A stretch of 64,000 nucleotides of DNA from Alphaproteobacteria bacterium (GTDB lineage Bacteria; Pseudomonadota; Alphaproteobacteria; Rickettsiales; SXRF01): assembly GCA_033763575.1 (NCBI GenBank), contig JANRKF010000013.1, positions 81,396-145,395 on the forward strand, read 5' to 3'. Position 1 is the first letter of the stretch. Every line of letters starts with the position of its first letter. The notes under the pieces are model-generated. The model was not told where the DNA came from and searched no databases. It saw only the letters and a program-made list of their open reading frames with translations. This document shows positions 59,592-63,409 of the stretch, one piece after another. Both the position numbers and the translations under genes were made by a program.

Positions 59592-59616
59592 GTGTCACAC
59601 AAACGTCACAATAAAT
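59592..59616 (+). promoter_or_regulatory. Shared promoter-like block, copy D (TGTCACACAAACG)
   Basis: gtgtcacacaaacgtcacaataaat. The core is identical to copy A apart from a 2-nt deletion. It lies about 55-80 nt upstream of ATG 59672. Confidence 0.35.
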
Positions 59617-59671
59617 CGGTAACATTTTCCTGCTAATATGCTATGCTGTAACCATAAAACTGGAGCATACG

Positions 59672-59959
59672 ATGAAACGTTTTACCATTCCCTGTGATTT
59701 CAGCGGCACCAAATATCCGTTCCATGTCTATGTCGGGGAGCCGCACCCGGCGCGGCATCCGCTGCAGAACCAGGCGTGGTGGCTCTCGTCGATCCGCGGC
59801 GGCACCATCCCGCAGGACGTGATGGACAGTTTCGAGCGCCTCCACAAAATCGCCATTGAGAATAACGTATCGTTCGAGGATCTGTGTGTCTATGCGCTGG
59901 GCACGGCGGCGGCGGAAGAAGGCAAAAAAGTCGAAGTGCAGGACAACGCGACCAGCTAA
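59672..59959 (+). CDS. DUF2610-like small protein
   Basis: MKRFTIPCDFSGTKYPFHVYVGEPHPARHPLQNQAWWLSSIRGGTIPQDVMDSFERLHKIAIENNVSFEDLCVYALG. From memory this matches the Rickettsiales-type DUF2610 pattern; not verified. Confidence 0.5.
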   Translation: MKRFTIPCDFSGTKYPFHVYVGEPHPARHPLQNQAWWLSSIRGGTIPQDVMDSFERLHKIAIENNVSFEDLCVYALGTAAAEEGKKVEVQDNATS

Positions 59960-59973
59960 CATGATGGCACCTT

Positions 59974-62406
59974 ATGGCCGACCAGGGATCCAACATCTAC
60001 AATCCGAGTGACCGCAACCGCGACGGCATGGACGACGATATCGACCGCCGCCATGGCAACGAAAACGAGAGCGCATCCTATTCCCGCCGCTACGATCCCC
60101 GCAGCGAGCAGGAATTCACCAACCTCCCCGAACCGCAGGATCTTCTGGAAGCGCGTAACGAAGAGGAGATGCGCAGCATGCGCAGGGCCGAGGCCGCCAT
60201 GCACGCCGCGCAGGAGGATGTGCATTATTTTCCCGATGTCGGCAAGTTTATCATCCCGGCGGAAAACACCTGGGCGGGCCATGCCGAGCTGGTGTACAAC
60301 AAGGAGCTGCGGCTTGGGTTTCACCCCGACCGTTATTTCTTCGATAAAATCATCGCCGATAAGCTCCGGCTTCCGGCGCTGGCCGACTCGAATCACCCCG
60401 ACTACGCCAAATATGAAGGCCTGCGCACCAACCTGGCCGTGCTCCGCAACGATGTCATCGGCATGTATCTCGACGATGGCGGCTTCGATAAGGGCGATGA
60501 GAAATTCATCCCGCCACTCAAAGCCATTGCGGAAACGCTTGGGGAGGCGCTGGCCAACGATGTCTGGTGGAAGCGCCCGTTCGTCCATTCCTTCAGCCGC
60601 GATGTGGCGAATGTCGAGGCGGTGGGCGCGGCCGAAATGTATAAATTTTTGCTACGGCAGCAGGAGCAGTCCGGCCTTATCAACAGCCTGCGCATCCTCG
60701 CCGGCGCGCCGGATAATCATTGGGGATTGCGCCCGCTTGAACAATCGGCGTTCAGCCCGCAGGCACTTTCGGCGCCTCCTCCAAACCTTGGCGTGATTGC
60801 AAGGGGAGCCGCGCCCGCCCCGGCGGTTGCCATGGCGCCGGACGCTGCCGGAAAACGCGCTACCGAAAGTCTGGCGCTCATCAACAAGGTGAATAAACAA
60901 TTCCAGCCGGTCGAGGCATTATCCGCGAATGATAAAGCAATGTCGGTGGACGATGGCCGCACCATCCTGCGCTGGCTCCGTAACCTGCAGGGCATGGATG
61001 TGGATGTGCAGGATTTCCTGAGCGCGGGCACGCCGCCGGAACAGATCGCGAAAGCCGAGGCGCTCGGTGCGCTGGTGCATCTTTATGCCAGCCAGCTACA
61101 GCATTGCCCGCCGATGCATCATGTGCAAACGGTGAAAGACGGCGCCGATGCGGCGGGCGGCGCGGCGATGATGATCGCCGAACATGCGATGACGCTCTTG
61201 CCGGAGGGCAACCCGGCGCGGGCGCTGCTTGCTTCGGCGATAGACACCATGCCGGAATCCTATTACGAACGCAGCACCCAGTCGGTGGCGCGGCTGCTCG
61301 ACCATATGGAGCTGGGGCTGTCTAAAATGTCCGGCCAGCAGATCGGCGAACGCACAGCGATCGATCGTTTATTGGAAGCAAGCGAACGCATCCACCGGCA
61401 CGCAAAGCAACTTCGTTCGGTCACGACGCTCGCCGAGCCGAAGCGCGAGGAATCGGTGGAGCTTGGCCGCGAGATCCTCCGCAAGCTGCGCGGCATGATG
61501 TTCTCGGACAAACCGATCGAAGAACAGATGAGCGCGGGCAACCCGGATGAAAAGGCCGCGCTGGTCGAAAAAATCGACGAGATGGTGGAGATTTACCGCA
61601 ACATCCTGGCCGAGGCGCTGGCGGTGAATCCCGGCCTTGCGAACGATCCGCGCATCAAGGCCGCGAACGATGCGGTGGGCGGCATGACGCACGGCATCAA
61701 GCTGATGGCCTCCAAGGATATCCCGAACAGCATCGCGCAGGCGCAACAGATATCGGCGGATGTCACACAGATGCCGCAGGAATGGAAACATATGCATGAG
61801 CGCACCACCGACCGCCTGCTGGAGACGATGGAAGGCGGGCTGGAAGCGGCGGTGGAGGGCATGGAAGAAGCCGAGCAGCAGGAACAGCGCGATGCCGAGC
61901 TGGCGCAGGAAGCGATCGAGGCCAGCCTGCTCCACACCCAAGGCCACGGCAAGCGCCGCAAGCGCCGCGCCCAGAAATCCGGCATGACCGGCAAGAAACA
62001 GGCCAAGCTCAACCGCGACATCATGGCGGATGACATGGCGGCGGGGCAAGGTCGCTTCGCCCATCAAAGCGACAAGGACAAGAAGGAAAACGCTTCTACT
62101 GTACAGCCGATGCAAACAATGCAGGTCACTGCGATGCAGGCGCCGCAACTGCAAGCCCAGTTACAGGCACAGGCGCAGGCACAGGCGGCAGGCATGCCTT
62201 ATATGGGACTCAACAACAAGGATATGGCGGCGATCAAATCGCTGGGTACGGCGCTGCGCGGTGCCGGACAGAAGGCCAAATCGATGCCGGTGGCCGACGT
62301 GAAAGTGGGCGATCCGATCAGAGCCGATGATAAAAGCGCTGCCGAGCGCGCCATCGAGCAGATCACCAATGCCCGCAAAAACCCCAACAACCAGCGGACG
62401 ACGTAA
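59974..62406 (+). CDS. Large hypothetical 810-aa protein (orphan, effector-like)
   Basis: Starts 14 nt after the DUF2610-like gene. Acidic N-terminus, helical body, and a basic cluster GKRRKRRAQKSGMTGKKQAK (KRRKRR...KKQAK at 61951-62007). Also has a Q/A microsatellite (62164-62187). Confidence 0.65.
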   Translation: MADQGSNIYNPSDRNRDGMDDDIDRRHGNENESASYSRRYDPRSEQEFTNLPEPQDLLEARNEEEMRSMRRAEAAMHAAQEDVHYFPDVGKFIIPAENTWAGHAELVYNKELRLGFHPDRYFFDKIIADKLRLPALADSNHPDYAKYEGLRTNLAVLRNDVIGMYLDDGGFDKGDEKFIPPLKAIAETLGEALANDVWWKRPFVHSFSRDVANVEAVGAAEMYKFLLRQQEQSGLINSLRILAGAPDNHWGLRPLEQSAFSPQALSAPPPNLGVIARGAAPAPAVAMAPDAAGKRATESLALINKVNKQFQPVEALSANDKAMSVDDGRTILRWLRNLQGMDVDVQDFLSAGTPPEQIAKAEALGALVHLYASQLQHCPPMHHVQTVKDGADAAGGAAMMIAEHAMTLLPEGNPARALLASAIDTMPESYYERSTQSVARLLDHMELGLSKMSGQQIGERTAIDRLLEASERIHRHAKQLRSVTTLAEPKREESVELGREILRKLRGMMFSDKPIEEQMSAGNPDEKAALVEKIDEMVEIYRNILAEALAVNPGLANDPRIKAANDAVGGMTHGIKLMASKDIPNSIAQAQQISADVTQMPQEWKHMHERTTDRLLETMEGGLEAAVEGMEEAEQQEQRDAELAQEAIEASLLHTQGHGKRRKRRAQKSGMTGKKQAKLNRDIMADDMAAGQGRFAHQSDKDKKENASTVQPMQTMQVTAMQAPQLQAQLQAQAQAQAAGMPYMGLNNKDMAAIKSLGTALRGAGQKAKSMPVADVKVGDPIRADDKSAAERAIEQITNARKNPNNQRTT

Positions 62407-62407
62407 C

Positions 62408-63409
62408 ATGGGATATCGCAATTTGCCCCCTGCCAGAAAGCCACCGCCGCCCCTTTTTTCAGGCGGCGATCGCGAGGTTGGCGCACCTGCCTACCGGGGC
62501 CCCGAAGGCCCTGCCTATAGCCGGGAACAGGCAAAGATTATTTTTGAGAATTTGATGGATGCCAGAATAGATGGGAAGCCCATTCCCTTTATTTCTAATT
62601 ATCGGGGACATTGCATTCAACGCAAGGAATTGATGTTGTGGCATATGGTTTATCACCAAGGGGTGGATCCTGCCGCCCTGGGGGCTGTGGTGTCCGACCT
62701 GAGTGAAATCAAACCGCAGCTTCTGGCGAACTACCCGGTGCGTGTGGCACAGACAGTATTTCCAGGGCAATACACTATAATTAATGAAGAAGAGTTGAAT
62801 GGCCAACCACCGGAATTTATGGAAGCACTTTATGCCTTCCACATAGCACCGGCCATAAAAGTGCATAACGGGAGCCAAGTGATCGATTATGTCATCGATC
62901 CGGCCATATGCGCCAACCCGGCCACTCTCGATCAATGGATGAATGCCCACACAACCCCCGTGAAGCCGAATAAAAAAGAGGCAAAGAAAACTGTACCAGT
63001 TTATTATACTCCTCTCGATAAAAAAGAAATGCACCATGTGCACGGCGACTCGCTTAATGACGATGCACGTGACTTCCTGGTGCTGGTCTCAGATCATACC
63101 ACGATTCCACTGCCTTCAAGCAAGAGTCCCGAGGAAAATGAAAAAGCGCTGGAAGCAAGCGGCGATATTAATGATATAATCCGTGCGGTGAGCGATCTCA
63201 AGAGATGCAATGCCGTACAAAGTGATTTCTGCCGATCCATAAAAAAACGCGGATCGATAGATCTCCCCAACTGCGGCCCACGGGCGTTGAAAGCGGTGTT
63301 GGAACATACGGAGGGCAAGCATCCGGAGAAAATGTCGCCCGAAGCCAAGGCATCGTTCACCCGTTTTATGGGCGCGAGGAATCGGGAAGCACCAACGCTC
63401 GGCCTGTAA
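62408..63409 (+). CDS. Hypothetical protein with a Cys-His-Asp protein-glutaminase/papain-like core
   Basis: ATG is 1 nt after the upstream stop. Pro-rich N-terminus, then RGHCIQRKELMLWH (Cys 62612-62614), LYAFHIAPAIKV (His 62840-62842) and VIDYVIDPAICANPATLDQWM (Asp 62897-62899). Confidence 0.5.
   Translation: MGYRNLPPARKPPPPLFSGGDREVGAPAYRGPEGPAYSREQAKIIFENLMDARIDGKPIPFISNYRGHCIQRKELMLWHMVYHQGVDPAALGAVVSDLSEIKPQLLANYPVRVAQTVFPGQYTIINEEELNGQPPEFMEALYAFHIAPAIKVHNGSQVIDYVIDPAICANPATLDQWMNAHTTPVKPNKKEAKKTVPVYYTPLDKKEMHHVHGDSLNDDARDFLVLVSDHTTIPLPSSKSPEENEKALEASGDINDIIRAVSDLKRCNAVQSDFCRSIKKRGSIDLPNCGPRALKAVLEHTEGKHPEKMSPEAKASFTRFMGARNREAPTLGL

Follow-up and report, generated by a model that had tools for sequence, protein, structure and literature searches.

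The window analysed here, a 64,000-nucleotide stretch of an alphaproteobacterial contig (JANRKF010000013.1, positions 81,396 to 145,395), carries three consecutive genes, designated g1, g2 and g3. The first two were found to be a tightly coupled pair, conserved as part of the core genome of a lineage of uncultured alphaproteobacteria. Our preferred, still tentative reading is that they encode a cytoplasmic adaptor-scaffold module belonging to the core of this lineage and subject to PhoB-type control, to which g3 contributes an accessory deamidase. The genes concerned, together with the upstream neighbour that recurs in the comparisons below, are as follows (aa, amino acids).

59672-59959, plus strand: g1, DUF2610 protein of 95 aa
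59974-62406, plus strand: g2, all-helical modular protein of 810 aa, from a family without annotation
62408-63409, plus strand: g3, protein-glutamine-glutaminase-like enzyme (PF18626) of 333 aa
59209-59505, upstream of g1: NDUFS4-like (NDUS4) gene, PF04800

A preliminary description of this DNA had presented g1-g2-g3 as an orphan operon of three tightly packed genes, and as a candidate effector or toxin module. The tight packing is evident from the coordinates of the open reading frames (ORFs), which all lie on the plus strand and are separated by 14 nucleotides (nt; g1-g2) and 1 nt (g2-g3); an alternative ATG for g3 is present at position 62327. The term "orphan" proved wrong, as g1-g2 is a vertically inherited core chromosomal block found in at least 74 species-level genomes.

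The distribution of the pair was determined with a profile scan covering one genome per GTDB species, which detected DUF2610 relatives in 195 species-level genomes. From these, 80 loci (given L numbers) were fetched and surveyed using hidden Markov models (HMMs) built from our own alignments. Of the 78 loci with enough sequence, 74 carry a g2-like ORF immediately behind the DUF2610 gene, the gaps ranging from -1 to ~38 nt; the four loci that have room for g2 and lack it are L017, L027, L077 and L079. The immediate upstream neighbour of DUF2610 is NDUS4 in 54 of 84 loci; the flanks consist of housekeeping genes, and the typical gene order is topA/rnr-NDUS4-g1-g2-SDF. The NDUS4-DUF2610-g2 arrangement is kept even by three distant g2 relatives (38-44% identity), in all of which g3 is absent; their flanks contain, depending on the locus, topA, an RNase R-like gene, an SDF transporter gene, purE or purK. 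The g2 sequence of the window comes from a metagenome-assembled genome (MAG) labelled "Alphaproteobacteria bacterium" (locus tag SFX19_04305), and the MAGs carrying the pair bear the NCBI labels "Rickettsiales bacterium" or "Alphaproteobacteria bacterium".

The proteins encoded by the window were then compared with those of five relatives, which gave the following identities.

g1: 85-99% identity to relatives
NDUS4: 57-81% identity to relatives
g2: 43-68% identity to relatives
g3: 35-39% identity to relatives

The order of conservation is g1 > NDUS4 > g2 > g3. Secretion chaperones and effectors normally diverge fast. The observation that g1 evolves more slowly than a respiratory-complex protein is the opposite of what would be expected of an effector chaperone or a toxin module, and it speaks against a role of g1 as the dedicated chaperone of some rapidly evolving effector. 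It can be argued from this conservation that the ~80-residue DUF2610 core contacts something invariant.

The small protein had been described beforehand as DUF2610-like, and this assignment is secure: g1 matched the DUF2610 profile PF11020 with 121 bits (cutoff 21; E 1.9e-35), residues 1-80 aligning with positions 1-80 of the 81 in the profile. In the protein, a conserved core of ~80 aa is followed by an acidic tail that varies. In total 308 homologues were retrieved, with identities of 65-95% among the 120 matches listed, and the organism names attached to DUF2610 clusters included no cultured taxon. A match to a ribbon-helix-helix protein in a PDB search (E 0.2) was dismissed as a chance similarity.

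The few DUF2610 genes without g2 are found in quite different surroundings. L017 contains three tandem DUF2610 genes and L027 two, in both cases beside genes of ATPases resembling type IV coupling proteins (T4CP-like; PF02534); these tandem DUF2610/T4CP-like regions span 5244-6291 and 6355-9612 (minus strand) of L017, and 5671-6279 and 6276-7571 of L027. Large HEAT or FGE-sulfatase proteins and transposases or integrases are encoded around them. The last DUF2610 copy of each array is 88-89% identical to g1, and the record labels are not alphaproteobacterial, L017 being assigned to a Planctomycete genus and L027 to a 7.8-Mb metagenome chromosome. In L077, DUF2610 is placed among integrase genes and a PIN gene, while the DUF2610 protein of L079 has a long Pro-rich tail. 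Plasmid p057_J of Nostoc sp. C057 (L086, 4518-8273) encodes a 1251-aa protein in which an nSTAND1 NTPase and TPR repeats are joined to DUF2610 as the C-terminal domain, the latter with 53% identity to g1 over 83 residues. Orthocaspases of cyanobacteria have likewise been listed with DUF2610 as an accessory domain (PMC8283722). The domain was not found in a scan of viral contigs.

The Nostoc protein shows that DUF2610 can also serve as a terminal domain in STAND-type proteins. The cyanobacterial proteins carry the same Pfam domain as g1, at the C-terminus of large signalling- or death-type proteins encoded on accessory DNA, whereas g1 is free-standing and part of the core genome. Because of the nSTAND1-TPR fusion, the orthocaspase fusion and the tandem arrays beside T4CP-like genes, the domain can be considered portable. 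What is new here is that DUF2610 is almost invariant, and that it is portable between very different partners.

The partner protein g2 is less easily placed. Its 60 homologues (35-66% identity) all originate from metagenomes or MAGs, none of them with a Pfam domain, and g2 itself matched nothing in Pfam, NCBIfam, PADLOC, PHROG(s) or the PDB sequences; recurrent matches to CPSase_L_D3, 27 residues long and below threshold, were dismissed. An AlphaFold2 (AF2) model based on a 41-sequence alignment was all-helical, in agreement with the helical protein of the preliminary description, with a mean predicted local distance difference test score (pLDDT) of 74.8 and values mostly above 90 for residues ~100-230. 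Foldseek searches with this model against PDB and BFVD returned nothing at E<1e-3; the similarities seen to talin rods and tape-measure proteins were generic helical matches and not significant. The following elements were distinguished within g2.

60220-60789, plus strand: N-terminal domain (residues ~83-272; pLDDT mostly >90)
60910-61335, plus strand: helical repeat 1 (residues ~313-454), missing from more distant relatives
61420-61857, plus strand: helical repeat 2 (residues 483-628)
61951-62007, plus strand: poly-basic cluster KRRKRR-x8-KKQAK (residues 660-678)
62164-62187, plus strand: (CAGGCN)x4 Q/A microsatellite CAGGCACAGGCGCAGGCACAGGCG, in a hypervariable linker
62215-62280, plus strand: conserved C-terminal helix GLNxKDxAAIKSLGxxLRGAG (residues 748-769 in the AF2 model)

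The N-terminal domain contains six invariant residues (H103, D124, R151, N153, R158 and N159) and three nearly invariant ones (H141, D143 and D160), and terminates in the conserved motif FSPxxLSAPPP. Profile searches with this domain against PDB and NCBIfam identified no relatives; weak PDB matches to Mer kinase and N-acetylneuraminate lyase (E 0.1-0.5) were dismissed as chance. The domain is encoded by a separate ORF in L014, L018, L019 and L031, and is missing from 15 loci (e.g. L020, L029 and L039). The split point is located exactly at the Pro/Ala-rich linker. Helical repeats 1 and 2, each of ~146 aa, are homologous to each other (hhalign probability 99.9%, E 9e-35, 146 columns in two sub-alignments). 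Most g2 relatives still show HMM matches that cover repeat 2, the tail or both, and distant relatives carry one repeat only. This internal duplication, together with the splitting off or loss of the N-terminal domain, indicates that g2 is modular in its evolution.

Both smaller features singled out in the preliminary description, the basic cluster and the Q/A microsatellite, were confirmed at the positions given above. A run of 5-8 Lys/Arg residues occupies the equivalent position in 9/9 orthologues (family consensus RKRRRRR); since it is conserved across the whole bacterial family, the stretch previously likened to a eukaryotic nuclear localization signal (NLS) is to be regarded as a family feature. 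The Q/A tract occurs in this genome only and is absent from the other eight orthologues, with or without g3, and the idea that it is tied to the presence of g3 was therefore rejected. The C-terminal helix is followed by a PDDKxAAERA motif and then by a basic, moderately conserved C-terminus.

A motif common to g2 and to the 484-aa protein encoded at 53590-55044 (minus strand) was observed, located at 60739-60790 (residues ~256-272) in the former and at residues 337-382 in the latter. It reads FSPxxLSAPPPxL in g2 and LNSPFFAPPPKL in the 484-aa protein (BLASTP E 0.006 over 50 residues), and may reflect a Pro-rich docking element that the two proteins share, or mere chance.

Between NDUS4 and g1, two conserved elements were identified. 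The first of them had been named motif copy D in the preliminary description, which spoke of a shared regulatory block.

59593-59610, plus strand: Pho-box-like direct repeat TGTCACA-CAAA-CGTCACA, two 7-nt units 11 bp apart
59611-59625, plus strand: block ATAAATCGGTAACAT, invariant in an alignment with L001, L003 and L004 and recurring in many loci

The direct repeat fits YGTCAYR-N4-YGTCAYR with 0 mismatches. The PhoB consensus of Caulobacter, obtained by chromatin immunoprecipitation sequencing, is YGTCAYR with an A-rich 4-nt spacer (bioRxiv 10.1101/741363), and the core of the Escherichia coli Pho box is CTGTCAT (PMC4415409). Alignment of the NDUS4-g1 spacer with those of three relatives revealed the invariant block ATAAWTCRGTAACAT. 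The element at 59611-59625 may represent either a further half-site in degenerate form (GGTAACA), the third of the series, or part of the core promoter. Candidate core promoters, judged from spacing, are TAACAT, placed 9 nt past the box, and, equally possible, a -35 hexamer GTAACA with a -10 hexamer TATGCT (59642-59647), 17 nt apart.

The same architecture, i.e. two 7-nt direct repeats 11 bp apart with a -10-like hexamer ~10 nt later, was seen on inspection of 84 upstream regions. An example is L072, TTGTCATAAAACTGTCATAAAACTGGCGTATAGT, consisting of TTGTCATAAAACTGTCAT, 10 nt and TATAGT; the spacing between box and -10 is clear in the distant relatives L070-L075. The E. coli pstS promoter, read in the same manner, resembles canonical examples such as L072. 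The g1-g2 promoters have in common with the known PhoB promoters (E. coli pstS, the Caulobacter PhoB regulon) the two 7-nt direct repeats (CTGTCAT/YGTCAYR), the A-rich 4-nt spacer and, clearly in the distant relatives, the end of the repeats ~10 nt upstream of a -10-like hexamer. They differ in that the genes behind the putative g1-g2 box are not phosphate-acquisition genes. A CtrA box (TTAA-N7-TTAA) was also considered by eye; its spacing does not fit.

Enrichment of the motif was quantified by comparing the 160 nt that precede the DUF2610 genes with the rest of the loci for the number of CTGTCAT-N4-CTGTCAT matches.

Up to 2 mismatches: 19/80 loci, background 0.0009 per 160 nt
Up to 3 mismatches: 34/80 loci, background 0.006 per 160 nt
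Up to 4 mismatches: 56/80 loci, background 0.044 per 160 nt

Perfect YGTCAYR-N4-YGTCAYR sites number 14 in 1.87 Mb of two-stranded sequence, and 10 of them are situated directly upstream of DUF2610. Motif copy D is real and conserved at orthologous loci; the further copies in the window are not above chance. Near-matches with 1-2 mismatches were found at 4057-4074 and 6846-6863 (plus strand) and at 55113-55130 (minus strand). The genes behind them, 4189-5595 (468 aa), 6958-9885 (975 aa) and 53590-55044 on the minus strand (the 484-aa protein mentioned above), have no Pfam or PHROG match; they may form a regulon with g1-g2, the number of such near-matches in the window being not above chance.

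The third gene was predicted in the preliminary description to carry a Cys-His-Asp signature of the papain/transglutaminase type, and the comparisons agree with this. The g3 protein matched PF18626 (Gln_deamidase_2) with 37 bits (cutoff 25), residues 44-180 aligning with positions 3-105 of the 106 in the profile, and is named "protein-glutamine glutaminase family protein" at NCBI. Its functional elements were mapped as follows.

62612-62614: codon of Cys69
62840-62842: codon of His145
62897-62899: codon of Asp164
63269-63280, plus strand: N-C-G-P motif (residues 288-291), far from the PF18626 triad

Cys69 is conserved in 8/8 homologues having the N-terminus, and His145 and Asp164 are invariant. 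The three residues are embedded in the motifs GxCxxR, FHxAP and DP, respectively, and the Cys and His/Asp motifs both align with those of a solved protein glutaminase in a profile match to PDB 8z3i (E 4.6e-4). Three homologues (P0062, P0063 and P0065) also match PF18626, and P0069 does so in part. We conclude that g3 is a triad-bearing member of PF18626, a Cys-His-Asp enzyme predicted from its sequence to have a papain fold and to be a glutaminase. It is not an orthologue of the Chryseobacterium enzyme, as its score against the equivalog NCBIfam NF040782 was far below the cutoff (14.4 bits against 250).

The protein-glutamine glutaminase of Chryseobacterium proteolyticum (PF18626; PDB 3A54, 8Z3I; the former cited in PMC10318531) and g3 have the same order of Cys, His and Asp motifs and the same His-Asp spacing of 19 residues. 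In contrast to it, g3 has no signal-like N-terminus and no N-terminal pro-region, contains ~35 extra residues between Cys and His, and is the third cistron of a cytoplasmic operon. The Chryseobacterium enzyme is a secreted pro-enzyme with an N-terminal pro-region. Another difference is the C-terminal extension of g3, ~150 residues long, which includes the sequence L-P-N-C-G-P-x-A-L-K, invariant in every family member. The NCGP motif within it might provide a second nucleophile, or serve in autoinhibition or docking. An alignment of the homologues showed that the very C-termini of the family are not conserved.

The g3 family is small. A phmmer search among 1.84 billion representatives gave 15 matches, eight of them at E<1e-10, and a scan of metagenome contigs for g3 relatives returned nothing. 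A g3 homologue is placed directly downstream of a g2 homologue in L088 (P0063), L089 (P0062) and L092 (P0065); the g2-g3 gaps are 1 nt in the window, and 2, 11 and -1 nt in these three loci. Wherever the contig extends that far, DUF2610 precedes g2. Including the window, seven distinct contexts of g3 homologues are known, and in four the gene directly follows g2; identity among the g2 proteins of these four falls to ~55%. The gene following g3 varies: none in the window, a gene of a 291-aa protein on the opposite strand in L088, a gene of a 262-aa protein in L089 and the SDF gene in L092. The co-occurrence of the trio, which the preliminary description suggested checking, therefore extends to three further genomes, and is lacking in most of the pair-bearing loci, where g3 is absent. 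The GC content of g3 (51%) is lower than that of g2 (61%) and than the window mean (55.7%), which is consistent with later acquisition or relaxed constraint.

In line with the preliminary description, none of the three proteins appears to be exported or membrane-bound: no 19-residue segment exceeded a Kyte-Doolittle value of 1.0 in g1, g2 or g3, and all three N-termini are polar. A cytoplasmic location is proposed because there is no transmembrane segment and no signal-like N-terminus.

According to the adaptor-scaffold reading, g1 and g2 would be translated together and assemble in the cytoplasm. Within this complex, DUF2610 would act as a portable docking domain for an invariant cellular partner and g2 as the scaffold. 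A response regulator of the PhoB type (OmpR family) would switch on transcription, most likely at phosphate limitation. In a sub-lineage of four genomes, g3 has been added as a third cistron, and its product might deamidate or transamidate glutamine side chains of a protein present in, or recruited by, the complex. Two of the parts are known, since homology searches, as suggested in the preliminary description, placed g1 and g3 in catalogued families (DUF2610 and PF18626); g2 gave neither a family nor a fold match and represents an unannotated family. What is novel is how the parts are combined: a Pho-type promoter precedes an adaptor-like DUF2610 protein, a scaffold built from repeats and, as an option, a deamidase.

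Several observations weigh against this reading. With regard to the promoter, PhoB control of g1-g2 is probable, judging from the identity and geometry of the motif. A tblastn search with E. coli PstSCAB, PhoU, PhoB and PhoR detected no pst or pho genes in the window or in the fetched loci, and the motif is not significantly repeated within the window (blastn-short, repeat and IUPAC searches). The other four perfect sites, on the minus strand of L048 (5433), L049 (1255), L068 (361) and L074 (1038), precede small unassigned ORFs and no recognisable phosphate gene; the 269-aa ORF behind the L048 site has no Pfam match. In the window and in L007, moreover, the perfect box lies one repeat, or one helical turn, further upstream than in many relatives, and GGTAACA occupies the position of the relatives' second repeat, which makes the role of the box there less certain. 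With regard to g3, its AF2 model, built from a 9-sequence alignment, reached a pLDDT of 43 and is unusable, so that the fold is supported by sequence comparison only. The g3 family was found in 0/80 GTDB loci and is absent even from the closer relatives L006 and L007; its tie to the pair may consequently be loose. Some g3 relatives are encoded elsewhere, P0066 after a glycosyltransferase cluster and P0067 beside mipZ, and P0064 is located on a short contig without g2.

In a rival explanation, g3 is functionally unrelated to g1-g2: a mobile, fast-evolving deamidase gene would have landed in a permissive gap between g2 and the convergent SDF gene, where it would be read through from the g1-g2 promoter, the trio then being an insertion accident passed on to a few relatives. 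Its absence from all 80 GTDB loci, its GC content, the unrelated contexts of its relatives and the differing downstream genes all fit this explanation. We nevertheless regard it as unlikely, because members of a very small family occupy the same slot after g2 in four of seven contexts, with gaps of 11 nt or less, and do so in four genomes whose g2 identity is as low as ~55% and whose g3 identity is 35-39%. The shared slot and the low identities point to long retention with translational coupling, not to a recent accident.

A secreted effector module, much as envisaged in the preliminary description, is quite unlikely. Here g1 would be an adaptor or chaperone docking on a type IV coupling protein, g2 a translocated scaffold effector, and g3 a translocated glutamine deamidase that, like Cif, CNF1 or MavC, modifies a host or prey protein. 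The gene order, small and then large, does recall chaperone-effector operons, and both the poly-basic cluster with the basic C-terminus of g2 and the weak, non-significant Foldseek similarity of g2 to talin rod bundles could be read in the same sense. The fast evolution and atypical GC of g3 would also fit. Moreover, a published survey reports that PF18626 genes have Dot/Icm genes in their surroundings (PMC10318531), and we found a PF18626 domain in a polymorphic-toxin-like 3491-aa protein, P0075, that is led by WXG100 and also contains metalloprotease domains. However, Pfam searches revealed no WXG100, PAAR or RHS-type trafficking domain in g3, there is no conserved adjacent immunity gene, and no type IV, VI or VII secretion system genes (T4SS, T6SS, T7SS) were present in the flanks read (L001-L004, L088 and L092 among them) or among the ~16 Pfam-scanned ORFs of the window. 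The unconserved C-termini of the g3 family also speak against it. The tandem DUF2610 genes beside T4CP-like genes in L017 and L027 would fit as well, but these copies are found in transposase/integrase contexts with HEAT and FGE-sulfatase proteins, in records labelled as a Planctomycete genus or a metagenome chromosome. The g1 protein is conserved at 85-99%, above NDUS4, the pair is inherited vertically in a housekeeping synteny by nearly every member of the lineage, and the FlhB, gene transfer agent (GTA) and biosynthetic genes of the window are read as those of a typical free-living cell. As no export signals, trafficking domains or conserved immunity-like partner were found, nor secretion genes in the flanks read, the effector or toxin claim is unsupported.

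Among the chaperone-effector operons of type IV secretion, we liken the g1-g2 arrangement to Agrobacterium virE1-virE2. In both, the gene of a small acidic protein is closely followed by that of a large protein with basic NLS-like clusters, and expression would be governed by a regulator of the OmpR family. The two pairs resemble each other neither in sequence nor in fold, however, g1 is far more conserved than expected for a secretion chaperone, and the g1-g2 pair is a lineage-wide core block with no T4SS genes nearby in the flanks read.

A bolder possibility, to which we give only a slim chance, is that DUF2610, as a near-invariant and horizontally portable domain, docks various cargo onto VirD4/TraG-type ATPases, STAND NTPases or caspases, and delivers g2 (and g3, where present) to a secretion or signalling machine at phosphate limitation. 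If true, the operon would represent a new class of adaptor-dependent modules, acting in effector delivery or in signalling, and g3 a new effector-type clade of glutamine deamidases.

A role in conflict or defence, in which phage or stress would be the trigger, DUF2610 the adaptor and g2 and g3 the sensor and effector, could be suspected from the fusions of DUF2610 to nSTAND1-TPR proteins and orthocaspases (PMC8283722), from its company in L017 and L027 (HEAT, FGE-sulfatase and T4CP-like proteins beside transposases or integrases) and from the predicted papain fold of g3, but is very improbable given the lack of a PADLOC match for g1, g2 or g3, of an NTPase, caspase or nuclease in the alphaproteobacterial loci examined and of DUF2610 on the viral contigs scanned, as well as the core-genome location, near-universal presence and extreme conservation of the pair. 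Defence islands, by contrast, are generally sporadic and fast-evolving.

A further parallel may be drawn with CheD-type receptor deamidases, in which a Cys-dependent glutamine deamidase is encoded in an operon with the helical-bundle protein that it modifies. The fold and family of g3 differ from those of CheD, and there are no chemotaxis genes at g1-g2-g3; a CheD-like substrate relationship would be pure conjecture.

In this large, entirely uncultured alphaproteobacterial lineage, few proteins can be as strongly conserved as g1, which ranks among the top in this respect yet is uncharacterised, and its domain recurs at up to ~89% identity in contigs with non-alphaproteobacterial labels. The g2 partner family, the promoter element and g3 together provide the first experimentally tractable handle on DUF2610. 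Should the Pho-box reading be true, the module would be a lineage-specific arm of the phosphate-starvation response; should the adaptor-effector reading be true, it would represent a new secretion-adaptor logic with a new deamidase clade. At present, it has the status of an uncharacterised conserved operon, not of a demonstrated new mechanism.

Some further observations concern the surroundings of the operon. The window carries genes of GTA tail proteins (GTA_TIM, Phage-tail_3, Rcc01698_C), the flagellar export protein FlhB and a ceramidase-family membrane protein (spans 28-2628, 52510-53586 and 57844-58500), and biosynthetic genes are encoded as well. Because of the FlhB, GTA and ceramidase-family genes, we read the gene content as pointing to a motile, free-living alphaproteobacterium and not to an obligate intracellular one. 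Downstream of g3, a sequence resembling, by eye, the C-terminus of an SDF-family symporter is present on the opposite strand (63819-63995). The adjacent plus-strand ORFs 55265-56281 and 56291-57847 together resemble, by eye, one sensor kinase: the former has an N-terminal hydrophobic stretch, and the latter an H-box, an ATPase region and a receiver domain. The tblastn match of E. coli PhoB in the window corresponds to the receiver of this putative sensor kinase (57488-57832), the gene of which (55265-57847) may be naturally split or frameshifted. Upstream of NDUS4, a 193-aa ORF without a family match is present at 58497-59078 (minus strand); the stretch between it and NDUS4 covers 59079-59208, and the ORF adjoins a very AT-rich spacer (~59070-59120) that lies just before NDUS4.

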